Positions 21,555 through 49,300 are shown, numbered from the stretch's first letter. The stretch is DNA of 64,000 bases from Convolutriloba macropyga (GCF_964194025.1 NC_134475.1:19096001-19160000); one strand, 5' to 3'. Notes: generated from the sequence alone by a model not told the origin. Program-made: numbers and translations.

Positions 21555-22163
21555 ATGAATCATCAACAACAAGCCCAGATGATGAGAAACCGATCCATGG
21601 TGCCTCCAAATGCTGCTCAAGTTCCGCCAAATCAAAATATTTCAATTGCTAATATGCCACAGTATTACGATCAAAACCCACCCAATACAAATCAACTTCC
21701 GATGACTGCGTCAATGCAAACAAATCTCCAACCTGGTATGGGTCAGTACCAACAGCAGCCTGCAAATGTTAGCAATGTTCCACAAAGCCAATCATATTTA
21801 GGTGGTCAGTCCCAGCATCAGCAACAGTCTACTAATGTTCAAGGCCACCCTAATTCCTCGTCAAGTCTTGGTTCAAGTCAGAATACCACGTCTTCAAGTG
21901 GCAGTGATTCGAACGCAGCTAAAGCAACCGACGTTGTTAATAGATTGAAAGTTTTATCTGATCGACATTTGAAAGATTCCTTGAGCAAGTTGATGACGTG
22001 TTGTGTGATGGCTGTGAATAACCAAGGAGGGAGAGATAATGGTGCTACTGACGTCAGTTCTAGCACCAGTGGAAGTGTAGTGACTTCGTCCTCGGGTGGT
22101 GAAAAGGACCCCGCGAACGAATACAGCAACGTCGCTTTGGGCCAAGCTGCCGAAGAATGCATG
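21555..22163 (+). CDS. MED29: Mediator subunit 29 (Intersex)-like gene, exon 1
   Basis: Q/P/N-rich N-terminus, then DVVNRLKVL...LKDSLSKLMTCC...AAEECM, followed by donor ATG|GTGAGT (phase 0, 203 codons). Confidence 0.75.
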
Positions 22164-22552
22164 GTGAGTTTTAGTTTTTCCAGTAGTTAAAGTTTGATAA
22201 ATATAAGAAGGGTATCAGAGGGAATTATATCAGTATGTATATTGTTGTTATTAAGAAATATTCAGAAAAGATTTATATGGCGGAAACTGAGTGGATGAAT
22301 CCCTGGCAATTTAAGGTTTCTTTATTAGTAGCCCGAAAGCGATAGCGAAGCAATTGTTGCTCTTACCGTAAATTTTTTTTTCAAATGCAAAGAATTTGAA
22401 TTGTTTTGGGGAGCTGTCTTTTGAATCGAAGAGTATGCTTTCTACGGGTTTTTTTTTCAAACCGTAAGTACTACATTCAAGTGGCGTTTTGACCTTAAAA
22501 GCGAAAGTGAGTAAATTTATAGTGTGAACTAACATCTTCTGAGCTCGATAAC

Positions 22553-22917
22553 TGTGATATCCTTGGATATCAAGAAGTCCTAAAAAGGATTGTTTTGATG
22601 ATCATAGAGTTAATAAAGATTTGGTTGTTTTAAGTTACATTTCTTAACCGGTACATTTAAATTATACAAGTATATTTGTTGTTAAATTTACTATGCTGTA
22701 AACTATTGCACTCAATGCCCATATATGCTTTGTTGAATCCGGATAAATGTTTAATGAATATACATAACAAAGGTAACCTACTGAAAGCTATTATTTTATG
22801 AGAGAAAAAAGAATAAAGTCTTGAGAACAGTTGGTTGTTTTAACAGAAGAAAACCGTGATCCACCACTCCGAAGAGCCTTAGGAGCTCAGGCTGAAAGTT
22901 AAAACAAGATTATTAGA
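22553..22917 (+). repeat. 5' LTR
   Basis: Direct repeat of 38764-39129 with about 14 differences by eye (~96%). Starts TGT, contains AATAAA. Confidence 0.92.
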
Positions 22918-22935: not shown

Positions 22936-23615
22936 GGTTGATCTTACCTTCCATTGAAACTTTAAACTTCTGATCTTTTATTTGTCTTTATTTCGGCCAA
23001 AGTCAAATTGTCATCATCGCTTTCATCAGAGAGCTAAAAATCCATTTAAACTATTAACAAGCCATGCAAAACATGCAAATGAAATTTGCACTTCAGTCGT
23101 GTTAACTTTAGAAAATTAATTGTGAAAAATTTCGAAATAAAACTTGTTAGATAACTTGCAATTCGTATCATTGGTTAATGTGAAAAATCCTTATTGAGAA
23201 TTATTAAGAACGACTTCATTGAACGACTTAACAAAAAACACGGATCATCAGGAGACGACAGTTGGAGGAAGGTGCAGAACCAGAAGTCTCAACACAGAAT
23301 AACAACGGGATTTGGGCAGAACGGAAGAGAACAATAGGGTGAAAACTCCGAAGAGCTGAGAACTACAGAGAACAGTCAGACTTCAAAAACTAGTAAGTTT
23401 ACAAATGCAGTAAAACCAATTATCTCAGTGTAGTTTATACATGTCATCACGTGCTTTCACTTTCACTCTATCCTTCGCTAATCAGTTTGCTATCAGTGCT
23501 AACCCAGTCATCTTTTGAAACAATTAGAAAGGTTTTTCATAAGCTTATACAAAGAAAATACCTTCTCTCTCCTCCTTATTAGGGAAATGGTTAAACAAAA
23601 TCTAATTTAACAAAC

Positions 23616-24867
23616 ATGGCTCAAACGCATGGCTCAACCATATATCTCTCAGCTCATTCCCGGGCCTCGAAAGTGAAAATTGGCGCGAGTTTGAAGCTTT
23701 ATTGCGCAGTCTCATAGCAGTAACAGCAGTCCCTAATGATCAACAAGCAAATTTCTTGCTATTTCACTTAAAAGACGGAGCTCTTAGATTTTTTCTAACA
23801 CTAGCTGAAGCGACTCAAAACAACTTAGAAAATGCACTCACAGCACTACGAAATCAGTATTGTGACCCAAATTTAAGAGAAGTTCATGCAATAAAGTTAC
23901 AGAACTTTAAGTTTAATCCCGGAAAAACAACGCAAGAGGATCTTCTAGTACAGATTCAAACATGCGCACAGCAGGCTTACCCAGATCCTAATTTGCCAGT
24001 TGTAGCGTCAGCTGCAAATGACGCTGATAGGCCTAGGTTTGACAGAGAAACCGCTGTAAATGCGGAAAGGTTAGCAAGCGCAATCAGAAATAGAGAAAAT
24101 CAAATTAAAAGAGCATTTATAAGAGCAATGCCAAATTGGCTACGCCTAAAACTTTTTGAACTTCCCGATAAATGCGACACCGCAAGAAGCATGTAACGCA
24201 GCTCGGAAAAATTTAGTTTTGAAGGACCTTTGTCCCACAGATGAATGGTCACCAGGATCAGTTAGTGAAATTCAACAAGGAGTTTTTGAGAATTTAGTAA
24301 ATGCGCTCACAAAAATGGGCCAAGCACAAGATTAACTAGAGACTAAAATTTCGGAACTTACACGTAAATTTGATAATAGTCAAACCCGACAAGAAGGAAA
24401 CTCGCAGAAAAACATTACTCAAAACACAAGGTGGCGGAAATATATTTAAACCACGAAATTAGAATAACTCAGGTCAGCGTTCGTTTAGACCAAATAACAA
24501 TCAATGGCGCTACCAAAATTATCAACGAAATAGAAATAGACCAAAATTTCCAAGAAATAGGAACCTACAATGGCAATTACCATTCCAAACATCTCCCCAG
24601 CAATTCTATCAGAACTAATTTCCAGCACCAAATCAATATAATCAACAAACAAGTCAGAGCCAATTTTCTGAGCAAAACCCCCAGGTTTCCCAAACATTCC
24701 AGACAACAGATCAGAGTTTCCACTACCCATATGTGCAATCGGCACCAAAAATATGCTTCAAATGTGGATATCCCAACCACTTAGCAAAAGACTGTCAAAC
24801 TTCAAGTAACCAAAATGCTAATCAGTACAAATCTGAAACGTTACCGTTTCCGATGCAAAAAAACTAA
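23616..24867 (+). pseudogene. gag: gag (frameshifted) with CCHC zinc knuckle
   Basis: FLLFHLKDGALRFF...ALRNQY capsid-like region; CFKCGYPNHLAKDC at 24754-24795; ends with the slippery heptamer AAAAAAC then TAA. Confidence 0.85.
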
Positions 24868-27800
24868 CTAAGCCACAGCTAAATTAGTCCAATAAAAAAC
24901 AAAAAAATATAAAAAAAAACTCAAAAAAATTAATTATAATCATCGTGTAGAGTCATCATCTATAAATGCTGTTATAACATTAGAAGAAGAACTCTCCTAT
25001 GTTCAAATTAATTTCTTGAAAAATTTTAAGCGTTGAGCACTAGTTGACACAGGAGCAACAACAAGTGCACTGTCGGAGTCAGTTTATTGGAGCTACAGAA
25101 AAATAGCGTAATAAATTAAAGTTCTTATTGTGAACCAAAATTCAGTCAAGTTAAAACAGCATCAGGCCAAGTAATAAACATTGATAAACAAGTATCAGTC
25201 GATTTGCACATCGGAGACTATAAGTTCACAGAAGATTTCTCAGTGCTACCTGAAATGAATAACATAATTATTGGAAATTCATTTTTCATAAAAAATATCC
25301 AAATTTGTCCTAGATACAAAATACTCAAGTTTGAAGACATATCTGTTCATTTGAATGAAATCAAACCTTTAACAGGCAGACGTAGAATATTGAAACCTTG
25401 TAAGTTCAATTTAACTGCTGCAAGAAAAATAATTATTGAAGCAGTCCCGGAGAGTCTTAGAATGCAAGTTTGAGGACTCACAGCCTGAAATCAAACATTA
25501 TAGTGGAGTCGTTACGCCTCAAAAACAGTTTGAAACAGAAGCAGAGTTATTGGTTAGCTCAGCAATAGTAACAACAACTGAGACAAACACAGTTTTTGTC
25601 TCAGTTATAGATTTCAACACTCACCCAATTACAATAAAAATAAACACGCCAGTAGCACAATTTAAAGTTTTAAACTTCCAGGAGTTACAAAAACTTCAGC
25701 ATGTTAGTTCAGATACTATACAGTTAGCAAAACTGATAGATGAATCAAACTACTTAGCAGAAATTAACAAGTTAATAGAAATACCAAAAGTGCAACAAAT
25801 CGAAAAACCAGCACCAGAATACGAGAAATTTTGGTTTCCAACACCGGAAAACTGTCCAGACATAACCTGTCTATCAAATTGGCAAAAACAGGTATATGAT
25901 AAAATAAGTGAGTACAGAGAAAGAGAAAAAATTAACCCAATACAAAATCAGAGTGATAGGAATGAGTTTTTACAACAATTTTCTTGGCAAGACTCAATCT
26001 TATCAGAAACAGAGCGTAAACAAGTTGAACAACTCCTAGTAGAAAATTTTGACGTATTTGCTAAACACAGATTTGATGTTGGCTACAACTCTGAACTTCA
26101 AATAAAATTGACACCATCATTACTTGTGTTTTTACAAAGCCTTCACACTCCAGTTCATCTTAGAGATGAACTTCTGACTGAAATAGCTTCAATGCACTCT
26201 TTCGGACTAATAACAACCTTGTCAAACTGAAAGTACGGAAGTCCCATTTTTGCCCAACTTAAAGAATCAGGTAAACTCAGCATTCTCATTGGTCTCCGTA
26301 GAATAAACCATTTACTACGAAACGACTACCTAAATTCAAAGTTTCCAATTTCATATGCAAGACGCAGTGAACCAGTTTGCTGGAAAAAAGCTATTCTGTA
26401 AGCTTGATTGCTCTCAAGCTTACCACTGTTTACAGATGGCCGATGATGTTTCTGTACAACTACTATCATTTAACTTCGCATCTCGAATTTACGTCGAAAG
26501 TAAGAAAATAGATAAATTTCTTTCAAAAATGAAAATGCCACAGACCGTAAAGCAGGTAAAGAGATTGATTGGAGTTGTCCAGTTCTTTCCTAGTCATATA
26601 CCTCAGCTAAATGAAATCTTGATACCTTTTTACAAACTTCTCCAAAAGTCAGCATTTTTTTCAACAAGTGATCGTCATCAAGAAGCTTTAGAACAGATAC
26701 GTAATGCCTTGAGGAAAGCAACAACTGTTTTACTCAGATTTCCAAAACCAGGTCTCCATGTTATATTATGTGACGCAAGCTACCATGGAGCTGGATACGT
26801 ACTTTTAGTTGAAGATTATCTGAAAGATGACAAACACAAAGAGCAGAGATTATATGCTCCAGTTTCTTTCGGCTCGAAACTATTTAACAAAGCACAGCTT
26901 AAATTGTCAATCTTCTGCAAAGAATTTTTTGCACTATATTTTGCATTGGAAGAATTTTCTCACTATATTTGGGGAGCAGAAAAGCAAGTTTTAGTTTTCT
27001 CAGATAATAAAAGCCTAACCCAGTTCTTCAAGGCAAGAACATTTCATCCTTCGCTTTGCGGATACTTGGACAGAGTACTAGCGTACAATATTGCCTTAGC
27101 ACACATTCCAGGCAAAGCAAACGTTGCAGCAGACTATATTTCACGAATTCAAACAGACCCTGAAAATGCCATTGAATTGGCAATGTAAGAGAGCATTCCA
27201 GTACGAGAAGTCAAAATATCGTTATCAGCAAAAACACCAGACGTTGCATTGTCAGCTATTACAGAGTTTGAAAATATGTTTGAAAAATCAGAGGATCAAG
27301 TTTTTGACACTGAAATAACCGACAAATTCAAGAAGGAAGGAATTTACGATGCTACGCTTTCACAGTTGAAAAACCAGGGAATCTCAATCAATTCGACGGA
27401 GCCTAGAAGTGATATTATGAAAATTCAGTTTAAGCCGGAAATGAATGCATTAGAATTGCAAAACCCACTGGACTCATTTCCAGACATAGAAAAATTGTCT
27501 AATCCACTATCATTTGTGGAGGAGCAGCAAAAAGACAAAGATATTGTCAAAGTAATAGGGTGGTTAAGCAGAAATGAAGTGGATAACAGCCGTTATTTGT
27601 CATTTGAACTCAGAAAGTATAGGAAGCAGTTTCCACGTCTAATTGTTTGGAATCAAATCCTTTACAGAAATTTTTGACGACACAGGAGAGATTTCAGCCT
27701 ACCAGTTTTGTGTCCCAAAACACCTGAGGAATGAGATCCTCTATCGACTCCATAATTCAAACTTAGTGGTCACATAGGTATCACCAGGACAGTAGCTGAG

Positions 27801-29272
27801 TTTATAAACAGATTTTATTTCCCAGGTTTCACAGAATACCTTATTGGCTATATCCGAAACTGTATAACCTGTTGGCAGTTTAAAACAGCGAAAAACGTTA
27901 CCCTTAGACCGCCACTTCAGCCCCTTCAGAGCAACATTATCCAGGTGATGTAATGCAAATTGGTATCATAGGTCCGTTTGACAGTAATCAAGACAAATTT
28001 GCACTAACTGCAGTCGATGTATTTTCTAAGTACATTTTTGCCATTCCAATTTCAAAAGCAGATGCACCAACAGTAGCAAAGTCCTTAGTTTCCATTTTCT
28101 TCAGACATAGTTACATGCCGTACATGATGATAGCAGATTTAGGCTCAGTTTTTACTTCTGACCTAATGCATGAATTAGTGAGTCTTCTCGAGATCAAACT
28201 AAGACATGCAACCCTTAAACACTATCAGTGGGAGTGGTTGAGCAATCTCACCTTTCCATGAAAAGAATCCTTAGGTTGGATTCAAATCAAACAGGCAGTG
28301 ACTGGCATAAATGGTTAGACATAGGAGTGTTTATACATAACACATCTTACTCTTCAGCTATAGGGTGCTCACCAACCTTAGTCTTTCATGACCGAGAACC
28401 TCATAAACCACTGGTTGTTAGAATTTACATCAAAGCCATTCAAGCAGCCATGCCAAGTTCAGACTTTCTTGATACCTTACAAGATGCAATGACACAACAA
28501 TTTTCTCGAGTCAAAGAGAAACTTGTGACAATGTATCACATGTATAGAAGTTATTACGATGACAAAGCGGAAGCTAAACCTTTAGATTAATTTTCTTATT
28601 GTCCTTTGCTCAATCCGCGCTGAGTAAATCAATCTGATCTTTGTAACAATTTTGTCCAAATTTGGCTCCCGCTATGCAAAGTTGAAAAAGTTCCTACAAA
28701 CTAACTATCTGATCCGAAAAGTTGGAACGCAATTTACGCAATGTGTTCATGAAGTCAGATTACGATCAATAGTACCACAGACCAGAATAGACGATATTGA
28801 TACATTAACAACCAAATTTTTTGCAGACCCAAGTTTGAGCAAATTTAGACAGGAACCTGAACTTTTTGACGAAAAAATTGGGAAATTGTTCGAAGAGTAC
28901 TATGAAGATCGAACAACAAGCAGTAACAAAAACGGTCTTAGCACCCCTTCAGCGCAGGTATATTGGAGTTATCCAATAGGTCATCCAGCACCAGGACTAC
29001 CAAATGGGCCTGGAACACCACCAAGGGCACCAAGTCCCCCAATTTTTTTTGAACCACCGGAAGTACAACCTGACGACGAACCAGTCCTTTTTGTTGACGA
29101 TCCAGCCCCTGCTGAACCATTTGAGGATCTATCAGATGCCCATCGTAGTATTGATGAGTCTGAGGAGCTATTAATAACAATACAAGGCCATAACAATGAT
29201 CAGGATCAAATTGAAAGTCCAAGATCAATAAAATCAAAAATTCACGAGATGCTAACTGGAGCGAGGACCTGA
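24868..29272 (+). pseudogene. pol: pol: protease, dUTPase-fold-like spacer, RT (catalytic centre deleted), RNase H, integrase with Pro-rich tail; multiple stops and frameshifts
   Basis: ALVDTGA (25037); FCKLDCSQAYH; CDASYHGAGYVL, KEFFALYFAL, FSDNKSL, HIPGKANVAADYISR; H..GHIG/CITC zinc finger; VDVFSKY, ADLGSVFTS, GVVEQSH. No YxDD is present between FASRI and VESKKI. Confidence 0.9.
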
Positions 29273-29486
29273 TTCACCGGTCAGCACTACGTCAACTCCT
29301 TCACCAATGGCTGGCAATCATCGTAGGTCGTCGCGCATACCCAAAATGCCAATACCAATCTACACAGAACCAAATATTTCAAAGGAAAAAAAAGTAACAT
29401 TCAAGTAGCCTTCAACTTCGAAGTCAAACAGAGGAGATAGATCTCTTAAAACTCAAACGGTAGATGAAGCGCTGAACAAATTTGGT

Positions 29487-30135
29487 ATGCGAGACTACAG
29501 CTCTATAGGTGATCTAGCAAAAACTATAGAAAGACGTAGAAAAGAAAGGGAAAAGGAGAAAAGAAACACCCCGTCAACTTTGATACAATCAAGTTCAAGT
29601 CAAGATACTTCAAAAAACAAGTCTAAAATATGCAAACCCAGTAGTTCTAGGCAATCGCTGACAAAGGAAGATTATTCTAGCTTTGAGTTGAGCAATATAA
29701 TTTGTTTGAGAGCGGAAATGAAAGAAATAAACGGCAATATTGTACAAAGTACATTGTCTGATCCTTTTTTTCGAATAATTTGTGGCAAAATCTTGCAAAA
29801 TTTTGTCCAGCTTGGTAAATATTGACGTACCAACTAACATTAACCTTGCAGGCGGCTCAATACATGTTCATTACAATAGATACTCGGACCGATTCGTTTA
29901 TAATCCCATCACAAAACAAAAAGTTTCGAAAAATGAGTTGATAGCAAATGTTTACCAATCGCTCATTTTACTAAGAAACCATTTCGTAGAAAATCATTTG
30001 ACCCAAATTTTTGTACCAAGACTAGGCATTGGTCTCGATGCAGTGCCCTGGCATGTAGTGAAGCAAATTTTTCAGAATATCTTTGGACAAACAGCGCTAA
30101 AGGTTGTGATAGTTTTTCCAACAGCGATTATTTGA
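29487..30135 (+). pseudogene. TARG1/OARD1-like macrodomain, copy A (frameshifted)
   Basis: FVYNPITKQK...VYQSLILLRNHFVENHLTQIFVPRLGIGLDAVPWHVVKQIFQNIFGQTALKVVI parallels TARG1 IYYLITKKR...[53 protein letters not shown]. Confidence 0.8.
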
Positions 30136-31224
30136 ACTTGAACATCATATCATGTGTCAATAATTACAGGCAAGTTGTAACATTTGGGCAAATAAAATAT
30201 GAGAAAAACTAACTAAAAAACAAAAACATAACAGAACTGAATTTTTAACCAAACTTTGAAAAGCACACAAGTTACAACTGATAAACAGATGACCCAAAAA
30301 AAGCTCGTGAAACCTTCAACAATATGCCAGGGGGACGAGAGGTGAAAATAAAATGCAAAAGTTTAAGTTAAAAACGCAAGAAAAATGGAATAAACGTCAA
30401 AAGTGCAGAAAAAACGCAAAAAAACCAGTTCTCTATGAAGGAGTAACAGCAGGGCCACCAAACTTTATCACCATCTGCACCAATTGTTCTTGTGCCTGCC
30501 AAGTTTGCTCAATTTTGAACCAATAGTTGAGAAGTGAATGCGTTTTTTTAATTAGGCCGAAAAATGGGAAAACTTGATTCTCAATTTTTTTTCATGGGCT
30601 ATTTTCCCAACTTATCACACTAGGGTTAAAAAAATTAGCCTGGAGTCCCAACTATAACCATACTGAGAGGAATTGGGGATAAAAAAGTCCTATCTATCAT
30701 GCATTAGGAGAACTGACCACCAGAAATCGCCAAAAATCAGACTCCAAAAAATGCGATTTTTTCTCAATGAAAAGGTAGCCCTAAAAAACTGAATAATAAA
30801 TCACCGTCTCTGACTACACTCAAATTAAGTATTCACATCGATACCTAACTGCATGCAAAAAATTTCAACGAAATTCGAATTATTTAGCAAGTTATAGACC
30901 TTTCGTGGTCAAAAATTTTTACACATCAAAAATCGTCGTTCTGGCTGAAATTTCATATCTTTATGAGGAGATGAATATGCTTGTTTGGCGTCTGTTATTT
31001 AGCTTAGAACTAAATTTTATTGATACAGAAACAATGCCGCATAGTTAGAAGGTCCACAGAAGTGAATTTTTTGAGTTTTGAACATTAATTGAACATTCAT
31101 TTTTTAACACCTAAAATTAGGCCAAAAATGCACAAATTGCAAGTTATTTAACAAGTTAGAGCCTCAAACGACGGCAGTTCTCTACTATTACCATGCATTT
31201 GAGCTGCTACTTTGTGGAAAACCG

Positions 31225-32071
31225 TTAAAAATGACATTGAGGTGAAATACATGAGACAAAAGTGACAACAAAGTAATAGATTATTGATGAAAAAATTAAA
31301 TAAATAAAGTAGCTTACAAGTAGAGTAGTTATAACGCCTTGCGAACGCTGTATCTCACGCTGCTTTTGTAATCTTTCTTGAGCTATACCTGGCCAAGCCA
31401 TTTTTTGATCCTTAGGGCTAATAAAAGTAGATACAGACAAAAGACATGTCCATTGATCGGGCCGAGCAATTGTTAAAACGCAGTGATATTGCCCGAAGGG
31501 TAAATAGACTGTATCGCCAGGTAACTGCCACCCTTGAACTGCATAGTCTTTGAAATAATCAAGCTGGTGAATTGAGCTGCTGGGATTTTCGCTGAAACGC
31601 TCTAGATTTGCAGCCATTTTACATGGGTTAAGAAAAACCCAGAACCTTTTTCCTGTACCATGCAACGTGATGAAAGCATCACAGGGATCTTCCCAATCAC
31701 AATGAAAGTTTGTGTACTGAGCTCCGGCACTTAGGATATTGAAACCGATGGACCAAGGACTCAGGGTAAACCCATGCGGCAACTGACAGTTAAGAAAATT
31801 GTGTTGAGTAGTCTTTAAGACACAATGATTGTTGTCTTTTGTCCTGAAAAATCCAGTTTTCTTATCATTACATGTAAACTTTGAAAGCACTGTACTGAAC
31901 TTTTTTGCACCGTAATTTGCTCTCTAAATAGCAAAAATAACTGAATATCAACTCAAACATTGAGGTGTTAAAACAAAGAATTAATGAAGTTTTTATTTAA
32001 AAAAAAAGCAAAAAGAAACATCAATATTTTTGTCCTGATATTTCACCAAAGGTTCCCGAATAATGAAAGGT
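31225..32071 (-). pseudogene. JmjC dioxygenase gene, copy A (5'-truncated at the duplication junction)
   Basis: YTNFHCD...GTGKRFWVFL...QLPGDTVYLPFGQYHCVLT (HxD...H triad). Confidence 0.8.
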
Positions 32072-33094
32072 ACCTTTCTTGATACCTTACAAGATGCAAT
32101 GACAACAATTTTCTCGAGTCAAAGAGAAACTTGTCACAATGTATCACATGTATAGAAGTTATTACGATGACAAAGCGGAAGCTAAACCTTTAGATTAATT
32201 TTCTTATTGTCTTTTGCTCAATCCGCGCTGAGTAAATCAATCTGATCTTAGTCACAATTTTGTCCAAATTTGGGTCCCGCTATGCAAAGTTGAAAAAGTT
32301 CCTACAAACTAACTATCTGATCCGAAAAGTTGGAACGCAATTTACGCAATGTGTTCATGAAGTCAGATTACGATCAATAGTACCACAGACCAGAATAGAC
32401 GATATTGATACATTAACAACCAAATTTTTTGCAGACCCAAGTTTGAGCAAATTTAGACAGGAACCTGAACTTTTTGACGAAAAAATTGGGAAATTGTTCG
32501 AAGAGTACTATGAAGATCGAACAACAAGCAGTAACAAAAACGGTCTTAGCACCCCTTCAGCGCAGGTATATTGGAGTTATCCAATAGGTCATCCAGCACC
32601 AGGACTACCAAATGGGCCTGGAACACCACCAAGGGCACCAAGTCCCCCAATTTTTTTTGAACCACCGGAAGTACAACCTGACGACGAACCAGTCCTTTTT
32701 GTTGACGATCCAGCCCCTGCTGAACCATTTGAGGATCTATCAGATGCCCATCGTAGTATTGATGAGTCTGAGGAGCTATTAATAACAATACAAGGCCATA
32801 ACAATGATCAGGATCAAATTGAAAGTCCAAGATCAATAAAATCAAAAATTCACGAGATGCTAACTGGAGCGAGGACCTGATTCACCGGTCAGCACTACGT
32901 CAACTCCTTCACCAGTGGCTAGCAATCATCGTAGGTCGTCGCGCATACCCAAAATGCCAATACCAATCTACACAGAACCAAAAATTTCAAAGGAAAAAAA
33001 AGTAACATTCAAGTAGCCTTCAACTTCGAAGTCAAACAGAGGAGATAGATCTCTTAAAACTCAAACGGTAGATGAAGCGCTGAACAAATTTGGT

Positions 33095-33745
33095 ATGCGA
33101 GACTACAGCTCTATAGGTGATCTAGCAAAAACTATAGAAAGACGTAGAAAAGAAAGGGAAAAGGAGAAAAGAAACACCCCGTCAACTTTGATACAATCAA
33201 GTTCAAGTCAAGATACTTCAAAAAACAAGTCTAAAATATGCAAACCCAGTAGTTCTAGGCAATCGCTGACAAAGGAAGATTATTCTAGCTTTGAGTTGAG
33301 CAATATAATTTGTTTGAGAGCGGAAATGAAAGAAATAAACGGCAATATTGTACAAAGTACATTGTCTGATCCATTTTTTTCGAATAATTTGTGGCAAAAT
33401 CTTGCAAAATTTTGTCCCAGCTTGGTAAATATTGACGTACCAACTAACATTAACCTTGCAGGCGGCTCAATACATGTTCATTACAATAGATACTCGGACC
33501 GATTCGTTTATAATCCCATCACAAAACAAAAAGTTTCGAAAAATGAGTTGATAGCAAAAGTTTACCAATCGCTCATCTTACTAAGAAACCATTTCGTAGA
33601 AAATCATTTGACCCAAATTTTTGTACCAAGACTAGGCATTGGTCTCGATGCAGTGCCCTGGCATGTAGTGAAGCAAATTTTTCAGAATATCTTTGGACAA
33701 ACAGCGCTAAAGGTTGTGATAGTTTTTCCAACAGCGATTATTTGA
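33095..33745 (+). CDS. TARG1/OARD1-like macrodomain ORF, copy B (open, 216 aa)
   Basis: Same motifs as copy A (ITK, PRLGIGLD..PW) in one uninterrupted frame. Confidence 0.78.
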   Translation: MRDYSSIGDLAKTIERRRKEREKEKRNTPSTLIQSSSSQDTSKNKSKICKPSSSRQSLTKEDYSSFELSNIICLRAEMKEINGNIVQSTLSDPFFSNNLWQNLAKFCPSLVNIDVPTNINLAGGSIHVHYNRYSDRFVYNPITKQKVSKNELIAKVYQSLILLRNHFVENHLTQIFVPRLGIGLDAVPWHVVKQIFQNIFGQTALKVVIVFPTAII

Positions 33746-34927
33746 ACTTGAACATCATATCATGTGTCAATAATTACAGGCAAGTTGTAACATTTGGGCA
33801 AATAAAATATGAGAAAAACTAACTAAAAAACAAAAACATAACAGAACTGAATTTTTAACCAAACTTTGAAAAGCACACAAGTTACAACTGATAAACAGAT
33901 GACCCAAAAAAAGCTCGTGTAACCTTCAACAATATGCCAGGGGGACGAGAGGTGAAAATAAAATGCAAAAGTTTAAGTTAAAAACGCAAGAAAAATGGAA
34001 TAAACGTCAAAAGTGCAGAAAAAACGCAAAAAAACCAGTTCTCTATGAAGGAGTAACAGCAGGGCCACCAAACTTTATCACCATCTGCACCAATTGTTCT
34101 TGTGCCTGCCAAGTTTGCTCAATTTTGAACCAATAGTTGAGAAGTGAATGCGTTTTTTTTAATTAGGCCGAAAAATGGGAAAACTTGATTCTCAATTTTT
34201 TTTCATGGGCTATTTTCCCAACTTATCACACTAGGGTTAAAAAAATTGGCCTGGAGTCCCAACTATAACCATACTGAGAGGAATTGGGGATAAAAAAGTC
34301 CTATCTATCATGCATTAGGAGAACTGACCACCAGAATTCGCCAAAAATCAGACTCCAAAAAATGCGATTTTTTCTCAATGAAAAGGTAGCCCTAAAAAAC
34401 TGAATAATAAATCATCGTCTCTGACTACACTCAAATTAAGTTCACATCGATACCTAACTGCATGCAAAAAATTTCAACGAAATTCGAATTATTTAGCAAG
34501 TTATAGACCTTTCGTGGTCAAAAATTTTTACACATCAAAAATCGTCGTTCTGGCTGAAATTTCATATCTTTATGAGGAGATGAATATGCTTGTTTGGCGT
34601 CTGTTATTTAGCTTAGAACTAAATTTTATTGATACAGAAACAATGCCGCATAGTTAGAAGGTCCACAGAAGTGAATTTTTTGAGTTTTGAACATTAATTG
34701 AACATTCATTTTTTAACACCTAAAATTAGGCCAAAAATGCACAAATTGCAAGTTATTTAACAAGTTAGAGCCTCAAACGACGGCAGTTCTCTACTATTAC
34801 TATGCATTTGAGCTGCTACTTTGTGGAAAACCGTTAAAAATGACATTGAGGTGAAATACATGAGACAAAAGTGACAACAAAGTAATAGATTATTGATGAA
34901 AAAAATTAAATAAATAAAGTAGCTTAC

Positions 34928-35809
34928 AAGTAGAGTAGTTATAACGCCTTGCGAACGCTGTATCTCACGCTGCTTTTGTAATCTTTCTTGAGCTATACCT
35001 GGCCAAGCCATTTTTTGATCCTTAGGGCTAATAAAAGTAGATACAGACAAAAGACATGTCCATTGATCGGGCCGAGCAATTGTTAAAACGCAGTGATATT
35101 GCCCGAAGGGTAAATAGACTGTATTGCCAGGTAACTGCCACCCTTGAACTGCATAGTCTTTGAAATAATCAAGCTGATGAATTGAGCTGCTGGGAGTTTC
35201 GCTGAAAGGCTCTAGATTTGCAGCCATTTTACATGGGTTAAGAAAAACCCAGAACCTTTTTCCTGTACCATGCAACGTGATGAAAGCATCACAGGGATCT
35301 TCCCAATCACAATGAAAGTTTGTGTACTGAGCTCCGGCACTTAGGATATTGAAATCGATGGACCAAGGACTCAGGGTAAACCCATGCGGCAACTGACAGT
35401 TAAGAAAATCGTGTTGAGTAGTCTTTAAGACACAATGATTGTTCTCTTTTGTCCCGAAAAATCCAGTTTTCTTATCATTACACGTGAACTTTGAAAGCAC
35501 TGTACTGAACTTTTTTGCACCGTAATTTGCTCTCTAAATAGCAAAAATAACTGAATATCAACTCAAACATTGAGGTGTTAAAACAAAGAATTAATGAAGT
35601 TTTTATTTAAAAAAAAGGCAAAAAGAAACATCAATATTTTTGTCCTGATATTTCACCAAAGGTTCCCGAATAATGAAAGGTCTTCCACGTAAAACTTGAG
35701 AGCCAAGACCTTCATCAACTTGTTGAATTTGCTCAGAGAGCTTAGATAACACAGGGCTAAGATCCATGCAATCTGAAGTCAGCAGTACGGATGAAAAGAT
35801 AGACTTTAT
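34928..35809 (-). CDS. Spliced antisense JmjC dioxygenase gene, copy B: exons 35809-35657 and 35533-34928, further exons likely
   Basis: Phase-0 GT-AG intron 35656-35534 (TTG|GTGAAA...TATTTAG|AGA) joins ...LRGRPFIIREPL to RANYGAKKFSTVLSK...YTNFHCD...GKRFW...PGNTVYLPFGQYHCVLT. Acceptor ATTTAG precedes 35809; donor CTT|GTAAGC follows 34928. Confidence 0.75.
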
Positions 35810-36041
35810 CTAAATAGGCCAAGTGGGTAAACAAAAGTGAGACAAGTTCCACAAATTAATTAGAATAACCACACATTAAACTCAAACTGACGCCTTTTAG
35901 AATTCATTGCTTCTGAATTATAATGCACAAAACCAAAACTGTGCGTTAAATAACAACTAGAAAACAACACAAGTAACATTAGTTTTAAGTACTTGCTAGA
36001 AATAACTCAAATCCTTAAGTAATTGCCTGTATACAGTGGAG

Positions 36042-36329
36042 TCATTTGCTGTACTGTGGAGTCATTAAACATCTCCTGTAAGCGCTCTCTGTTTCCTGAT
36101 TAGATTCATGAACGCAACAAATAGAATGGAGATCGGAATCAAAACAAATGAATTGATCCACGAAAAATCTTAAGTACCCTTCCAGAATTGAAACTTCCGA
36201 AGCTGTTCGGGGGCAAATAGAGGGAACTGTTTCACTGAATGATAAAATGCCATCAGGAATTGACCACGCAAAAGTGCCATTGGGGCGGCAAAGCAAACCA
36301 AATTGTCCCAAACTTATGTTGAAACACAT
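36042..36329 (-). CDS. Possible upstream exon of the JmjC gene or separate antisense ORF
   Basis: 95-aa ATG-initiated ORF on the same strand just upstream, separated by an AT-rich intron-like stretch. No clean splice join found. Confidence 0.3.
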   Translation of the reverse strand: MCFNISLGQFGLLCRPNGTFAWSIPDGILSFSETVPSICPRTASEVSILEGYLRFFVDQFICFDSDLHSICCVHESNQETESAYRRCLMTPQYSK

Positions 36330-36529
36330 TTCCGAACTGAAAAACTCCTTTTGAAATTAGCTATGAATATTTGCAAAACAGAGTAAAAGTCATTAACCAA
36401 AACATTCACACAAAAGAGACGATAAAAACAAAGAGCACAATCGTGAAGATTTTGCATTACAAAATCAGCTTATAGAATTAAAACAAAAAAGTAAAAGCCT
36501 CATCTAACTCAAAAGGGACACATTTAATT

Positions 36530-38602
36530 CTGATTTCATCTTGCTCATCTGTTCCTCTTCGTCTGTTCACAAATTCAACACCTAAACAGCTACTTTTTTT
36601 ATGATTTCAACCTAGACTGGATTCTGCGAAAAATTGAGAAAGAGGTGGCAATTGCTAGAACAGAGGTTAGCTACCTGCATAATGAGACACAGCACTTCTT
36701 GGAAGCATTGAAAAACACAGTTCCTAATCGCAAAAAACGAGCAGCGCCAGTAGTTCTAGCAGGTTTGGCAGCAATCGGACTTTTTGGAGGAATTGCTTTC
36801 GGCTCATCAGGCAGCTGTGGAATTATTGGAGTATTTGGAGGATGTCACGATAAAGCGAAGAAAAATGCAGAAAACATTCAAAAACTGGCCGACTATACAG
36901 AACAGATAGCGACCTAGGTCTCATTTGTAAAATCAGAGACAGACGACAAAATCTTTCTCAGTTCGAATGAACTGGCCACTCTGCACAAGATTCAAAATGA
37001 ACTTATTGAGAACCAGAACAGAAACTGGGAAATAATTCAAAAGCAGTTCGAAGTTTTCGAGAAAAACATTAGATTGCTCCAAGATTATGATCAATTACTT
37101 TTTTTCAAATCAGCAGATAAACTTTAATTTTGACACTGCGGCATTGTTACTCAATATGATATACTCGGATGTCAAAAGCTATAGAGCTGCACTTACTGGA
37201 TATCGCATGAATCTTCTCAATTCAATACCAACACTTACAGAAAAGATTACCGATGTCCTTAGTACCTCGAGATTCCCTAATGAAAATTGAAGACTATGTT
37301 GCACGCGAACAGATGAACGCTCGTGACCGACTGACCCTAGCAATTCCCATGGATGATCTCCTGTCTTACTATAATGCAGAACTGTTGACGGATGCACTAT
37401 CGATTAAGCAAGGGCTACTTTTAACCCTTGCAATCCCGTTGGCTTCTCGTCAAACAGTTTTCACAGTTTTTACCGATAAAATTGTACCAATGCCACAAAA
37501 AGGCACTGGAAGCGCAATTAGATGGAAAATAGAAACTCCATACTTAGCCGTATCAGAAGACTCTATGGAAACAGCAGTGCTAAGCGAAGATCAACTAGGG
37601 AAATGTTAAGGATCTTCCAACAACAGAATTTGTCATGAGACAATTCCAACGGAGTTGGGACACTCCTCATGCTTAGCCACTCTTTTTCGGAACGAACTTG
37701 GATGCTTTAGTAACTTGTCCAACTGAAAATGTTGTTTTGCCTGCTATAGAGGCAGCAGAAAACCTAGGATACGGTATCTAGGTAATCTTGTCAGCGACGG
37801 ACACATTTACCTTGCGAGAGTCCTCCATGGATAGTTCAAACGCTCTCCAAGTCAGAACCTACCCCGGTTGCCAGATATGTCTTATCACATTGGAATGTGG
37901 CAAGCAAATTACAACTCCACACTTGAAAATTAGATCTGACCTAGGAAGCTGTCACAAGATTCCAGCAATTAAAATTCAAGTAGAACTTTCTGACCCTCTC
38001 AAGCATTTACTGACTGAAGTGCCAGAAATAGACCAACTCCCATATTTCAACAAAAAAGATCAGGCCAGTCTTACTCTTATGAGACAAGTACAAGAAAAGT
38101 TAATAAAAATTCCGTCAATGAGAACAACAGAAAACCTTGCAGAGATAGCCAAGCCCATCGCCATTCAAATGACACATTCGAAACCTGTTTTGAGTAACAC
38201 CTTTGAGAGCTACATGCCGTTTAAATACGCGCTCCTTATGGGAGTGGTATCATTCCTAGTTTCATTGGTCTTGCACTTACTATGCATGTATCTTTATCAC
38301 AGATTTAGTTCTGTACGTCGTTTAGTCCCGAACTTTATGAAGGTCGGTAAACAAAAGGTTCCAGTCAAACCAATGGTCGTAGTTGACAAAATCACTTTCG
38401 AAAAATAGCAGGAGAGAGATAAGTGGGAAAAGCGTGCACATGTTGTCATGAAAAAGTCCAAATCGGATAACAGCCTTAGAGCCCCTGACACCGAAAGGGA
38501 GGAAGAGCTTATGGAGCGGAGAAAAAGTCTATGCTCGGTATATACAAAAAGTGATTCCATAAACGACTTCGAAGAAGTCAATGTGAAAATTATTCATTTA
38601 TA
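36530..38602 (+). pseudogene. env: env: class I viral fusion glycoprotein (disrupted)
   Basis: Furin site RKKR followed by fusion peptide AAPVVLAGLAAIGLFGGIAFG; heptad region; Cys-rich ectodomain (CQICLITLECG); TM ALLMGVVSFLVSLVLHLLCMYLY; cytoplasmic tail; located just before the PPT/3' LTR. Start approximate. Confidence 0.85.
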
Positions 38603-38763: not shown

Positions 38764-39129
38764 TATGATATCCTTTGATATCGAGTAGTCCTAAAAAGGA
38801 TTGTTTTGATGATCATAGAGTTAATAAACATTTGGTTGTTTTAAGTTACATTTCTTAACCGGTACATTTAAATTATACAAGTATATTTGTTGTTAAATTT
38901 ACTATGCTGTAAACTATTGTACTCAATGCCCATATATGCTTCTGTTGAATCCGGATAAATATTTAATGAATATACATAACAAAGGTAACCTACTGAAAGC
39001 TATTATTTTATGAGAGAAACAAGAATAAAGTCGTGAGAACAGTTGCTTGTTTTAACAGAAGAAAACCGTGATCCACCACTCCGAAGAGCCTTAAGAGCTC
39101 AGGCTGAAAGTTAAAACAAGATTTTTAGT
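38764..39129 (+). repeat. 3' LTR
   Basis: Direct repeat of 22553-22917, followed by TSD ATAAC. Confidence 0.92.
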
Positions 39130-40236
39130 ATAACTGTTTTGTTCATTGTACTTGTTGAGTAAATGAGTTTTTGACTTCGAATAGTTCCTCCAAAAGAAGG
39201 TGCATTTAGCTAACCGTTTTAGCCGTTTTTCGTCGAGTTAGCTTTTTTAAAGGTTGTTTTGGAACAAATATTTGATCCAGGCTGAAGATATGGAAATGTT
39301 CTCTGCAGTTCATTTTACGGAGACTAGTAATACGTTCCAAGAGAAAAAATGGCTAAATTTGTTTTTTTTTCAATAAGTGACCTTTTTCTTTAATCAGTAT
39401 GGCAAGGACATTTTATTAAATTTACCATTGCTCTCCTGAGTTTTTGTTTTTACATGAGGTACTTTTCTTTTTTAAAAAATAAATTTATACATATTTTTCT
39501 TAATGTTTTTGGTTCAACTAGAATAAACATTTGCATGCACTGCCAAGTTTCGAATTTTTCAAACATTATTCTGACATTTTTGGCATTTGATCTTAACTAT
39601 GTACACATTGTCTTATTGAGTCAAAATATTGAACTCACATTGGTTTAATGGATGAGAAAAGCCGTGGCTGAATGAAGAGTTTTACTTTTTTCTATTTTGT
39701 TTTCTTATTGTTTTTCAAATTGTTTAAGGGCTTACTATTTTGTTTGCAAATTTTCGTAATCTATTCTTAACATTTTTGGATGCTGTTTGTTTCTTTCAAA
39801 TAATATCTGTTTAGCATAGTGACCATAATGTTGAGTCTTAATTGCTCTGCATTATCAGCATTTAACAATTTCTTCAATTTGCATTCCTTTTTGTTGAAAT
39901 TTTCAGTAATGTAGTGCAATATAATGTAATGTCGTCCTTAGAATGCGATGGGATTAGCATTTCATTTTGAGAGTTTTTTTTCCCGAAACATTGTTTGGGA
40001 ATGGTTCTGGTTATGATTTTGGCTTTCAATTTCAATCCTTTTTTTATTTTGCATTCCGTATTCATTTTTGAATTAATTGAAGTAAGAAGTCACCGATACT
40101 GGAAATCGAAATATTGGTCAAGCTCTTTCAACAGTTTGAGTTCTAGAAATTGATGAATTTTGCTTACAAATCCTTTCAAATACAACTCTTAAATTTGCTT
40201 GTAATGAATCGTTGCTCAAATTGATAATCCCTTTAG

Positions 40237-40566
40237 GCCTTGCTGGACCAAATTGAAATGAACCTGCAATTATCTATCGACTGGACAAATCAGCTTAAAA
40301 TCATGGACAAATTCTGCTCACCTCAAATGAGTCAATTATCTCCTCAGGATCAACAATACAGAAATATTACTACCGAAGATTTCCTCAGTGGCTACGCTGT
40401 CCATAAAGAGTACTCCGACAAAATGACGGCAACTATTGATGATTTTTTCAAGCAACTTTCTTCTATATCATCTAATGAGCATTTGTCATCGACTGATGGA
40501 ATGGGAACTACTGATAGTCATGATTCAAACAATGTCAACAGTTTTGCGTGTTCGGCTCTGCTTTGA
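40237..40566 (+). CDS. MED29: MED29-like gene, exon 2 (spliced product ~312 aa)
   Basis: Acceptor CCCTTTAG|GCC in phase 0. The join gives EECMALLDQIEMNLQLSIDWTNQ, matching the MED29 core motif EEFY.lCDQiE..L..A.eC..Q. Confidence 0.75.
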   Translation, partial: ALLDQIEMNLQLSIDWTNQLKIMDKFCSPQMSQLSPQDQQYRNITTEDFLSGYAVHKEYSDKMTATIDDFFKQLSSISSNEHLSSTDGMGTTDSHDSNNVNSFACSALL

Positions 40567-44835: not shown

Positions 44836-46380
44836 CACTAACATACAAATTTAACGAATCTATATAAGTGGGGATGCTATGATTTTTTGGGGCACCCAGT
44901 TTTGGGGAACACCAATATCACTAAAAATAAGGTGACTTTTTTTCAAATTTACCAGTCAATTCCTTTTTCACCATGCCGATTTAGGACAACACATTAACAG
45001 CAAATGCAAGGGGATTACAGCATAAGAAAAATAAGCCTACGTTCGAATAAATTGATAGAGTACTTTAGAAGATATGAGCAAACTACTGAAATGTACCCCT
45101 TTTTTGAGCTAGAAGCAGAGACAGAGTTCTTCAGAATTCAAGCATAATTGAGTAGAACAGCCAAGCTAACGTGTTTGTGGTAGTAGCTTAGGTCCACATA
45201 GTAGTTCTTAGTCACGGCAAGCCCTCATGGGGAGGTGGGAATAAATTCCCAACTCTCCATGAAGGCTATGATGTTTTGAGTGGTTTGAAAAAAAAACAAC
45301 ACACCCACAGAAATCTGTTGAAATTTTCAAAAATGAAAACTTGTTGAATTAACTATTACCACCGCCAACGTTGGCTTCAAGGACAAGAATGTGGTGTAGA
45401 CAACGCAAATTAATCAGGGAAAAGACGTATCATTGAAATTTTAACATTCCATTTACAAAGAAAAAAAACGGCAAGTTTTCGATGAATTGCAACAAAATAA
45501 CATACTAAATAGCAAGTGCCGATTAACCAATGATAAAGGAGAGCTCGCCCATTACTGACTTTAAAACAATGCGTGTTTGATCAGAGAAATTAAAGCAATA
45601 CTATTGCCGAAATTGCACAATTTCTGAAAAACAACGTTGCTTTTGTTATTTCGTCCAAGAAAATCTTCTTAGAAACCACGCAAGACTGAGTGGCTAATCA
45701 ATTGAAAGCAGGTTTCCAGATGTCTAAAATGATCTGTTTAGAGGCTTATTTAATCGAAAATCTGATGGTGATCAGCAAAAAAGCCGCCAAAAGATTGAGA
45801 GAAGTCAGTTGGTTAACAGAAGGTACCAAATGGAAAAATTTCTCTGCCGTTTCACGTTTCGCTAAAATACAACATCAAAACGTGTATAGAATTAGTACAA
45901 TGAGTATATATATATATATAAAGATACTCCTCATTAACTGAGCAATATAAGACACTACACTTTATAACCTTGACCCAAAAAATTCAACTTTTCTATGTCA
46001 CTGCCGAAATAACCGAAATTGGCCGAAAATCGAGGTTCGGCGCATACAGAGCAAAAATTGACCACTCCAACTCCGTAAAACCATATAGAAAACGTACATG
46101 GGGATACTCCCCACTAACATACAAATCCAACGAACCCTTAAATGTAGGGATGCTATGGTTTTTTGGGGCACCCAATTTTGGGGAACACCAATATCACTAA
46201 AAAAATGGTGACTTCTTTTCAAATTTACCAATCAATTACATTTTTACCAGGCCAAATTAGGGTAATACAATTAAAGAAAAAACTAGACGGTTACAATACT
46301 AACAAAATAAGCATATGCTGGTAGAGTTTTGCTGAGCACTTGACCACTTATCAACAAAACAACTAAGTGTACCTCTATCA
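44836..46380. repeat. Diverged ~260-bp direct repeat pair (44836-45100 and 46112-46380)
   Basis: CACTAACATACAAAT...GGGATGCTATG...GGGGCACCC...GGGGAACACCAATATCACT at both positions (offset 1276). Confidence 0.75.
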
Positions 46381-49300
46381 ATCTGAATCTGAAAGACTTA
46401 AAAAAAATGGAAGCTACATTGGGACCATATGTCGTTACCGCTTCTATAATAGTGTAATCTAGTTCTCCAGAGATCTATTTTATGCAGGTATATTAGTTTT
46501 TGATTTAATATATAGGGAAGAGTGATTGCATTCAAGTTGATCCACTTTAAAACCACTGCGTTTCCTGTTATTATGATTTAAAGAAATTAAAGTCTTTTTA
46601 AACCGTTTTTTTGGAACTTCTGTATTGATATTCAATTCAGACAACCCAAATGGCTTACAAATTACTTGTACGATCTAGAAACATTAGTAGCGCTGAAGAG
46701 TGGGAAACCTTTATATCAGGTTAACCGTAGCTTTGCTAAAATTTATAAACGGCAGGAAATAGTTCCATATGTGTTTGTTTTGTCCTCTATACTTTCCAGA
46801 GAGCCGAATTTCGGAAATTTTCTCCTAAAATTAACTGGCAAACTTCAGTTCGATGGACAGGGTTTTGAAGCAGTGCTTATGTTCGAAAATGGAATTAGTT
46901 CGAATTAAGAAGAATAACAATCTGATTCTGAAAGACTTTAAACAAATGGAAGCTAAATGAGGACCATATGTCGTTACCGGTTATATATACGTATAATCCC
47001 GTTTTCCAGAGATCTACATTATGCAGGAATAATAGTTTTTGATTTAATATATAGGGAAGAGTGATTGCATTCAAGTTGATCCACTTTAAAACCACTGCGT
47101 TTCCTGTTGTTATGAATTAAAGAAATTAAAGTCTCTTTAAACAGTTTTTCTGAAACTTCAGGATTGATATTCAATTCAGACAACCCAGATGGCTTCCAAA
47201 TAACTTGTTTGATCTAGAAACATCAGTGGGGCTGAAGAGTGGGAAACCTTTATATTATACTTAACCGTAGATTTGCTAAACTTAATAAACGGCAGGAAAT
47301 AGTTCCATAAATGTTTGTTTTGTCCTCTATACTTTGTAGAGCCCAATTTCGAAAAGATGCACCTAAATTTAACAGGCAAACTTCAGTTCGACGGACAGGG
47401 TTTTGAAGCAGTGCTTATGTTGGAAAATGGAAATAGTCCGAATTAAGAAGAATAACAATCTGATTCTGAAAGACTTTAAATAAATGGAAGCTAAATGAGG
47501 ACCATACGTAGTTACCGTTTCTATATACGTATAATCCAGTTTTCCAGAGAGCTACTTTATGCAGGAATAGTAGTTTTTGACTCATTATATAGAGAAGAGT
47601 GATTGCATTCAAGTTGATCCACTTTAAAACCACTGCGTTTCCTGTTGTTATGATTTAAAGAAATTAAATTCTCTTTAACCCGTTTTTTCTGAAACTTCAG
47701 GATTGAAATTCAATTCAGACAACCCATTTGGTTCCCAAAAAACTTGTTCGATCTAGAAACATCAGTAGGGCTGAAGAGTGGGAAACCTTTATATTAAACT
47801 TAACCGTAGCTTTGCTAAACTTAATAAACGGCAGGAAAAAGTTCCATATATGTTTGTTTTGTCCCCTATACTTTCTAGAGAGCCCAATTTCGGAAAGAGG
47901 CACCTAAAAAAAACAGGCAAACTTCAGTTCGACGGACAGGGTTTTGAAGCAGTGCTTATGTTGGAAATGGAAATAGTTCGAATTAAGAAGAATAACAATC
48001 TGATTCTGAAAGACTTTAAAGAATGGAAGCTAAATGAGGACCATATGTCGTTACCGGTTCTATATACGTATAATCCCGTTTTCCAGAGATCTACATTATG
48101 CAAGAATAATAGTTTTTGATTTAATATATAGGGAAGAGTGATTGCATTCAAGTTGATCCACTTTAAAACCACTGCGTTTCCTGTTGTTATGATTTAAAGA
48201 AATTAAAGTCTTTTTAAACAGTTTCTCTTAAACTTCAGGATTGATATTCAATTCAGGCAACCCAAATGGCTTCCAAATTACTTGTTCGATCTAGAAATTT
48301 CAGTAGGGCTGAAGAGTGGGAAACCTTTAGATTAAACTTAACCGTAGCTTTGCTAAACTTAATAAACGGCAGGAAATAGTTCCATAAATGTTTGTTTTGT
48401 CCTCTATACTTTCCAGAGAGCCCAATTTCGGAAAGATTCACCTAACATTAACAGACAAACTTCAGTTCGACGGACCGGGTTTTGAAGCAGTGCTTATGTT
48501 GGAAAATGGAATTAGTTCGAATTAAGAAGAATAACAATCTGATTCTCAAAGACTTTAAACAAATGGAAGCTAAATGAGGACCATATGTCGTTACCGGTTC
48601 TATATACGTATAGTCCAGTTTTTCAGAGATGTACTTTATGTAGGAATAATAGTTTTTGATTTAATATATAGGGAAGAGTGATTGCAGTCAAGTTGATCCA
48701 CTTTAAAACCACTGCGTTTCCTGTTGTTGTGATTTAAAGAAATTAAAGTCTCTTTGAAACGTTTTTCTGCAACTTCAGAATTGATATTCAATTCAGACAT
48801 CACAATTGGCTCACAAATTACTTGTTCGATCAGGAAACATCAGTAGGGCTGAAGAGTGGGAAACCTTTATATTAAACTTAACCGTAGCTTTGCTAAAATT
48901 AATAAACGGCAGGAAATAGTTCCATAAATGTTTGTTTTGTCCTCTATACTTTCTAGAGAGACCAGTTTCGGAAAGATGCACCTAAAATTAACAGGCAAAC
49001 TTCAATTCGACGGACAGGAATTTGAAGCAGTGCTTATATTGGAAAATGGAATTAGTTCGAATTAAGAAGAATAACAATCTGATTCTGAAAGACTTTAAAT
49101 AAAGGGAAGCTAAATGAGGACCATATGTCGTTACCGGTTCTTTATACGTATAATCCAGTTTTCCAGAGATCTATTTTATGCAGGAATAATATTTTTTGAT
49201 TTAATAAATAGGGAAGAGTGATTGCATTCAAGTTGATCCACTTTAAAACCACTGCGTTTCCTGTTGTTATGATTTAAAGAAATTAAAGTCTCTTTAAACC

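Follow-up and report, generated by a model that had tools for sequence, protein, structure and literature searches.

We analysed a 64,000-nucleotide stretch of the Convolutriloba macropyga genome (GCF_964194025.1 NC_134475.1:19096001-19160000; hereafter the window). At its centre lies a decayed env-carrying Ty3/gypsy element (gag-pol-env) with a gene for a JmjC-domain protein on the minus strand between pol and env, which is very likely an element-borne, spliced accessory gene. Self-comparison of the window revealed direct repeats at 22555-22916 and 38766-39128 (96.7% identity), and Pfam searches found JmjC_2 in the minus orientation, opposite to the gag zinc knuckle, reverse transcriptase (RT)/RNase H, integrase and Macro domains, all of which are plus-strand. 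Paired long terminal repeats (LTRs) with a target-site duplication (TSD), a primer-binding site (PBS), a polypurine tract (PPT), the gag zinc knuckle and the order of RT/RNase H before integrase mark the element as Ty3/gypsy. The antisense placement proposed in a first-pass annotation is thus borne out, the gene lying opposite pol, macro and env in one LTR element with a 5-bp TSD. The features are as follows.

22548-22552 and 39130-39134: left and right TSD, 5 bp, identical 5-mers
22553-22917, plus strand: 5' LTR, 96.7% identical to the 3' LTR
from 22918, plus strand: PBS-like sequence TGGTGACAG, directly 3' of the 5' LTR
23606-24867, plus strand: gag remnants with a CCHC zinc knuckle (Pfam zf-CCHC, E 4.6e-5)
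25120-30135, plus strand: highly fragmented pol remnants in the Ty3/gypsy order of RT/RNase H, integrase and Macro (Pfam RT_RNaseH, rve, Macro)
28464-32071 and 32074-35681: units 1 and 2 of a 3.6-kb tandem duplication (99.06% identity by self-comparison)
31318-32071, minus strand: 5'-truncated JmjC duplicate without a start codon, comprising the catalytic exon (31318-31923), the intron and the last part of exon 1
33017-33745, plus strand: TARG1/OARD1-like Macro domain (OARD1, E 6e-10)
33753-34767, no strand assigned: non-coding stretch; cassette types with saturated JmjC synonymous sites share 70-76% identity here
34922-34927, minus strand: second donor-like site after the catalytic exon, motif GTAAGT/C
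34928-35533, minus strand: JmjC catalytic exon, 202 codons, with YTNFHCD and H74-D76-H147
35534-35629, minus strand: conserved phase-0 intron, 96 nt, its donor damaged in the window copy
35630-35772, minus strand: JmjC exon 1, acceptor 35773, ATG 35767 (5 nt on), 46 codons
36042-36336, minus strand: separate small open reading frame (ORF) for a predicted single-pass membrane protein, acceptor 36337, ATG 36329
36534-38408, plus strand: env remnants (F-type fusion protein), lacking ~330 nt through a deletion in the 5' part, near 36600
38764-39129, plus strand: 3' LTR, PPT just upstream, antisense donor-like site at 38993

Comparison with other copies in the genome defined the exon structure of the JmjC gene. 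The 202-codon frame at 35533-34928 with its YTNFHCD motif is as first annotated, and the phase-0 acceptor before 35533 lies in frame at a homologous position in every subfamily, preceded, as had been claimed, by an upstream coding exon. The donor of this intron had been placed at 35656, where other copies have a Val/Ile codon (GTRAGT in 0 of 30, GT in 22, AT in 8). A conserved donor lies 27 nt beyond, at 35629 (GTRAGT in 22/30 and GTR in 28/30, the exceptions being the window copy and L031; counts are for the 30 of 41 copies in which both candidate sites could be placed), and the intron is therefore 35629-35534. In the window this donor has been damaged by a short deletion; the homologous intron of other copies measures 67-111 nt. 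Amino-acid similarity extends nine codons past the 35656 site, up to the phase-0 donor at 35629, and an exon-1 profile matches the intron-less database relatives P0047 and P0127 (E 7e-5 among 138 proteins) and P0062 across the motif. Counted from the acceptor-adjacent ATG, exon 1 comprises 46-60 codons across copies. The donor proposed after 34928 is real as a motif: 22 of 28 copies have GTAAGT/C close to the end of the ORF, immediately on one side or the other of the stop. Copy comparison led us to reject the 35656 donor, an acceptor before 35809 (the conserved acceptor is at 35773, with the ATG at 35767) and two supposed JmjC exons, at 36042-36329, a stand-alone small ORF in sister copies, and at 34040-34150, which has no AG directly upstream and a frame broken in the closest copies (L003 and L004). 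The earlier exon map was thus wrong in three of five details; of its splice sites, the acceptor before 35533 and the donor after 34928 are conserved across copies and the donor at 35656 is not. It had also overlooked the tandem duplication and the second JmjC copy at 31318-31923. The JmjC copy in the window is a decayed member that probably makes no functional protein.

Searching the genome with the catalytic exon gave 74 matches (26-100% identity), corresponding to 44 places besides the window, of which all but the four weakest were fetched. In all 40 of these loci pol-side and/or env matches lie opposite the JmjC strand (env in 39, both flanks in 35), and 18 of the 25 LTR pairs examined are bordered by a 5-bp TSD. 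Copies with TSDs and LTRs 99-100% identical retain the JmjC intron, and since several copies have LTRs this similar, the gene has moved recently within whole elements. Its position and orientation are constant across lineages whose integrases are only 52-65% identical. This constancy argues against a passenger, be it an element inserted on its own or a fragment of a host KDM7 gene captured recently, as the sharp borders of the JmjC-bearing segment and its exchange as a block (below) might suggest. Moreover, self-comparison showed no internal terminal repeats, and the host possesses a conventional KDM7-like gene of its own (L117), which aligns weakly with the element protein (hhalign probability 21%) and whose exon runs unbroken through the region of the element's intron. 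We therefore reject both recent capture and nested insertion, which the shared position and the L117 comparison largely refute, and consider a passenger origin very improbable.

Between subfamilies the synonymous sites of the gene are saturated (pS 0.73-0.93 versus pN 0.12-0.44), and despite this saturation the H-x-D...H residues and the splice sites persist. The sole unsaturated cross-subfamily pair, L048/L053, gives a dN/dS of 0.05. The JmjC gene is under purifying selection across the clade; on the other side of the balance, close copies, which differ by few changes, have dN/dS values of 0.24-1.6, in keeping with decay after insertion. Selection also bears on the idea that the gene restrains its own element, with the antisense RNA or its protein dampening sense transcription in the manner of HBZ-like latency or copy-number control. 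Antisense transcription over env toward pol could form double-stranded RNA (discussed in PMC7264820), and antisense proteins of human T-cell leukaemia virus (HTLV) inhibit LTR activation (PMC3391691). A role for the RNA alone, however, does not account for selection at the codon level or for the retention of catalytic residues, and restraint appears to us improbable.

The JmjC cassette is exchanged as a block between backbones that are ~92% identical. Compared with L033, L035, L036, L037 and L039, the window is 89-95% identical over gag-pol and env-LTR and 70-76% identical over 33753-34767, and is barely alignable from 34767 to 36600. At least three cassette types occur on one backbone (87-96% identical), its copies forming one RT clade in a tree without the window copy. 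As similar backbones are combined with synonymous saturation inside the cassette, recombination rather than fast point mutation accounts for the pattern. The incongruence between backbone and cassette is based on pairwise identities, RT being the one tree available among pol, env and JmjC. Read depth on DNA contigs, a weak measure, drops several-fold in the cassette relative to the backbone. The backbones of L158-L167, whose Pol is 60-75% identical to that of the C group, bear a JmjC protein of an H-x-E rather than the H-x-D type, and exchange therefore reaches across JmjC families.

Divergence on this scale (window and L033 share 57% of JmjC residues as against 93% for both integrase and env), together with three cassette types on such similar backbones, would also suit a non-catalytic decoy or binding competitor for silencing factors, for which divergence and swapping would record an arms race over a binding surface. 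A non-enzymatic function has been described for fission-yeast Epe1. A pure decoy would nevertheless have no need of the metal triad and the 2-oxoglutarate (2-OG) lysine, which are retained down to 23% identity, and we rate this explanation, too, as improbable. Among 19 open frames, H74 and D76 are present in 19/19 and H147 in 18/19, completing the H-x-D...H triad; the Lys and Thr columns, which we take from PHF8 to be those binding 2-OG, are kept in 18/19 (the exception being the window copy) and 14/19, respectively. The protein is probably an active Fe(II)/2-oxoglutarate oxygenase.

Both sequence and predicted structure bring the protein closest to KDM7-type demethylases. The best matches of a family profile were PHF8, PHF2 and KDM7A, at E 2e-7 to 2e-6, followed by KDM2A (0.04) and JMJD6 (0.05). 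Pfam JmjC_2 was matched at E<=0.1 in 17/19 rows, mostly under the cut-off. The AlphaFold2 (AF2) model built from 71 rows (pLDDT 86.8; an earlier model from 19 rows, pLDDT 44, was discarded) has the double-stranded beta-helix JmjC fold; where KDM7/KDM2 proteins have a C-terminal helical (JHD) domain, only two helices come after the barrel. Foldseek searches with this model returned PHF8, PHF2 or KIAA1718 in all top 10 rows (E 3e-6 to PHF8). Among 1.84 billion representatives the profile had 123 matches, comprising element-like proteins, then unnamed proteins of 160-300 amino acids (aa), then cellular KDM7/KDM2. A metagenome scan gave one locus, JMJD6-like by motif and unrelated to the element. 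The host genome also contains KDM5-like (L111) and JMJD4-like (L113) genes in long uninterrupted frames of 1450 and 349 aa.

Several observations weigh against a KDM7-like histone demethylase. The KDM7 signature that follows the Asp (TDFHIDFGG..VWYH) is replaced by H-[CST]-D-[WYF]-[EMT]...ITL in element rows, and the equivalents of the PHF8 pocket Tyr and Asn are not kept. No PHD finger, CXXC reader or other targeting domain was found, and exon 1 has no Cys/His finger. A wide structural search with VIA-align tied generic cupins, JMJD5, FIH, KDM2A and PHF2 at Z 10-11.5, and a quick tree (75 rows, 120 columns; five of 80 rows dropped, including the host KDM7 exon, and one KDM7 row mis-cut) grouped the element proteins with unnamed small JmjC proteins outside KDM7/KDM2, with weak support (SH-aLRT 83). 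The KDM2/KDM7 likeness proposed in the first-pass annotation thus holds in that the nearest characterised relatives are PHF8, PHF2 and KDM7A, and fails as to membership by motif or architecture; in the quick tree, at weak support, the element proteins fall outside these KDMs. With a KDM7-like fold and cofactor site, but without the KDM7 motif and PHD finger, we therefore describe the protein as having a KDM7-type oxygenase mode rather than as a KDM7 member.

The same features raise the alternative of a non-histone oxygenase, similar to JMJD5, JMJD6 or FIH, whose target would be a host factor in defence, splicing or translation, or else a protein or RNA of the element itself. Small stand-alone size, lack of a reader domain and loss of the KDM7 pocket residues would fit such an enzyme; JMJD5, FIH, TYW5 and JMJD6 are level with the KDMs by structure; and the TARG1-like Macro domain of the element points toward the countering of protein modification. 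Yet the sequence profile and Foldseek both place KDM7-type demethylases first, the second JmjC family described below keeps H-I-E-[FWY]-G-G, near the HIDFGG of KDM7, and basic, NLS-like tails end the proteins of the L134 family and several relatives. We regard a non-histone substrate as rather unlikely. A histone-directed anti-silencing role seems to us evenly balanced between true and false, and we give about half our confidence to the reading as a whole, in which a conserved, intron-containing antisense accessory gene would encode a compact JmjC oxygenase that counters host silencing through demethylation of repressive histone marks.

Antisense JmjC genes are not confined to this family. A genome search with an unnamed relative uncovered further antisense JmjC-like ORFs, among them a second family (~400-500 aa, H-x-E) with at least 151 matches (150 of 460 candidates scored). 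Of 20 loci sampled from this family, 17 have pol and/or env opposite the JmjC strand. For a 498-aa protein of this family, the JmjC assignment comes from the motif and from a profile from A2 (E 1e-17 among 76 sequences); searched by itself, it had no Pfam or PDB match. In L134-type elements the JmjC gene lies between env and the 3' LTR with a small Cys-Cys ORF alongside, and its first intron has the same position and phase as that of the window family, nine codons after EPL. The basic tails of this family and its relatives may, judging by sequence, resemble nuclear localisation signals (NLSs). Antisense JmjC is a recurring feature of env-carrying elements in C. macropyga, in dozens to hundreds of copies. 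The H-x-E family (L130 7290-8045, minus strand; L155-L157) has, in addition, a conserved antisense ORF of ~250 aa between JmjC and env, with an acceptor just before its ATG and no Pfam match.

We then considered how the antisense genes may be expressed. Of the 19 starts examined, 17 have a YYAG acceptor 5-9 nt upstream of the ATG; the other antisense families are alike, and host JmjC genes too have acceptor-like sites just before the ATG. Across the cassettes of nine representatives there are 29 donor hexamers in antisense and 7 in sense, and D-group copies have a further acceptor and a micro-exon adjoining the env ATG. GTRAGT is found on the antisense strand of 16/22 3' LTRs and on the sense strand of 0/22, the copies being related, and it can be aligned across D lineages with LTR identities of 44-63%. 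Some caution is needed in taking this motif for a donor, as the chance of GTRAGT in a resampled LTR is 0.12-0.40, both C lineages and the C15 LTR of the H-x-E family lack it, and it may be a sense-strand promoter element. The HTLV antisense gene HBZ is a precedent for a 3'-LTR antisense leader (PMC3391691).

A spliced leader has been published for the acoel S. roscoffensis (PMC9911081). The sequence has 2078 matches in the C. macropyga genome, against 0 for a control, and in six copies viewed it is followed by non-GT sequence, as in retrocopies. An ascidian-type leader motif had 0 genome matches. The ~2000 matches are dispersed, and those viewed (L150-L154, L073, L100) look like retrocopies of leader-capped mRNAs and thus like a genomic record of trans-spliced transcripts. 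Two pattern searches for leader-capped retrocopies of the antisense mRNAs yielded 0 matches and 1 match, respectively, the latter an unrelated mRNA. Four contig runs, which cover LTR and non-coding parts alike, contain no joint at either intron and have no bearing on expression. Given a host spliced leader and acceptors 5-9 nt before the ATGs, expression is therefore likely to proceed via LTR-leader splicing or trans-splicing. These routes are not mutually exclusive: cis-splicing from a 3'-LTR antisense leader falls just short of an even chance, spliced-leader trans-splicing is slightly more tentative, and an internal promoter near env is unlikely. A promoter in the ~200-bp gap before env, as earlier proposed, found no support, and the LTR antisense donor-like motif and the host spliced leader offer other routes.

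The mechanism we envisage would begin with an antisense pre-mRNA initiated in or near the 3' LTR. It would be processed at the acceptors before each ATG, through the LTR donor-like site and/or host spliced-leader trans-splicing, to give separate mRNAs for the small membrane protein and the JmjC protein. Packaged sense RNA would hold the introns as their reverse complement, so that they would survive reverse transcription. The JmjC protein would then enter the nucleus and may act on H3K9me/H3K27me-type marks, like its nearest characterised relatives. Introns opposite the packaged RNA are not spliced out of it, and unspliced genomic RNA retains sense introns as well, such as that of env. The first-pass view that introns survive retrotransposition only because the gene is antisense agrees with their retention in recently moved copies; its 'only' is too strong.

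The small antisense ORF of the cassette is frameshifted in the window near 36170, in which broken form it had no Pfam or PDB match. In the eight sister copies shown it has ~75-95 codons, a CCxNGT-like motif (Cys-Cys-x-Asn-Gly-Thr) and a C-terminal hydrophobic run, with a signal-like N-terminus in addition in group D. The non-coding stretch at 33753-34767 is possibly a cis element or 3' untranslated region. Its D-group counterpart, between the JmjC and macro stops, contains several CTTAATACATGG-like short repeats in L048, L053, L057 and L063, which are possibly protein-binding or packaging signals. On the sense strand, the Macro domain is the Pol C-terminus in less decayed copies and is in frame with pol in L042. 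The env of L042 has Atlas features at 0.95-0.96 to Baculo_F/Fusion_gly clusters, although the recognition value is low (1489), and Pfam and PDB sequence searches with sister-copy env gave no fusogen match.

Tandem duplications resembling that of the window occur in L034 and L040, and others involve env or integrase (L046, L039). JmjC-bearing element parts also form tandem arrays at C2:27097964-27109893 (~1.14-kb units) and C15:20712344-20728949 (~1.06-kb units). Duplication of element parts may be a general trait, not specific to JmjC. The element itself sits inside an intron of a host gene (flanks 21546-22163 and 40238-40566, plus strand; donor after 22163, acceptor before 40238), which may resemble Mediator subunit MED29, Pfam having given no confirmation. 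Elsewhere in the window, a 4.4-kb unit present twice (1214-5599 and 54570-58954; 97%) bears two long uninterrupted ORFs head to head, encoding a TIR and HEAT-repeat protein and a class II (D/K/N) tRNA synthetase, and is possibly another mobile unit or a segmental duplication; 46261-54333 is a tandem array of ~15 copies of a 538-bp unit.

The elements share with the env-carrying Ty3/gypsy 'ancient errantiviruses' (PMC13524379) the LTR-gag-pol-env organisation, the RT-RNase H-integrase order, PBS and PPT, F-type env and multicopy state. The window family departs from them in the Macro domain of its Pol and in two additional genes, both antisense, that lie between pol and env. JmjC, macro, antisense and acoel have 0 occurrences in the main text of that paper, and its seven text supplements contain neither JmjC nor four acoel names. 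Gypsy elements of orchids similarly form a Ty3/gypsy lineage with a fixed extra Fe/2-OG oxygenase ORF, AlkB, which has demethylase activity in vitro and is proposed to counter host control (PMC9289625). That system involves a recently captured AlkB m6A RNA demethylase in plants, whereas the worm gene has a JmjC fold and is antisense, intron-containing and deeply diverged, in env-carrying animal elements. Known retroelement antisense ORFs downstream of pol are likewise conserved and need their own transcript; no enzyme is recognised in them as described, whereas the worm gene encodes a recognisable enzyme, has a conserved intron and lies upstream of env. HBZ of HTLV-1 and APH-2 (PMC3391691) are also spliced antisense accessory genes, with a 3'-LTR origin shown there and only suggested here, but they encode bZIP regulators of vertebrate deltaretroviruses and overlap viral genes, whereas the worm elements have a captured enzyme in its own cassette. 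With the KDM7 subfamily (PHF8, PHF2, KDM7A) the worm protein shares the H-x-D...H triad, the 2-OG Lys/Thr positions and the best profile and Foldseek matches; it differs in its ~250-aa size, the absence of a PHD finger, the replaced FGG..VWYH and its separate, long-branched tree cluster. Macro domains occur in fish endogenous retroviruses (PMC4977317), and captured readers and writers of chromatin marks have been documented in transposons (10.1101/2021.11.30.470311); the text of the latter work does not contain 'JmjC', and its supplements list fusions of chromatin proteins and transposable elements that could include demethylases. A search of the literature (titles and abstract starts, with subscription journals and Repbase beyond reach) found no JmjC retroelement accessory gene, which does not establish absence from print. 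The themes of a captured oxygenase and an antisense accessory ORF are known, and we have not found their combination described. As JmjC genes of this kind fall mostly below Pfam cut-offs, they would be missed by routine annotation.

It is not settled how animal transposons evade H3K9-type silencing, and a gene that is old, selected, exchanged and present in several families allows the idea of a transposon-encoded eraser to be tested directly. The gene illustrates how a retroelement can retain genes with introns, possibly also exploiting trans-splicing. In the boldest form of this proposal, which taken together we hold to be unlikely, acoel errantiviruses would be complex retrovirus-like elements with a swappable antisense operon, resolved by spliced-leader trans-splicing and encoding a heterochromatin-erasing histone demethylase. 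If true, this would be the first histone-mark eraser encoded by a mobile element, with hundreds of copies in at least two radiated families; it could also help to explain why acoel genomes are half LTR retrotransposon.

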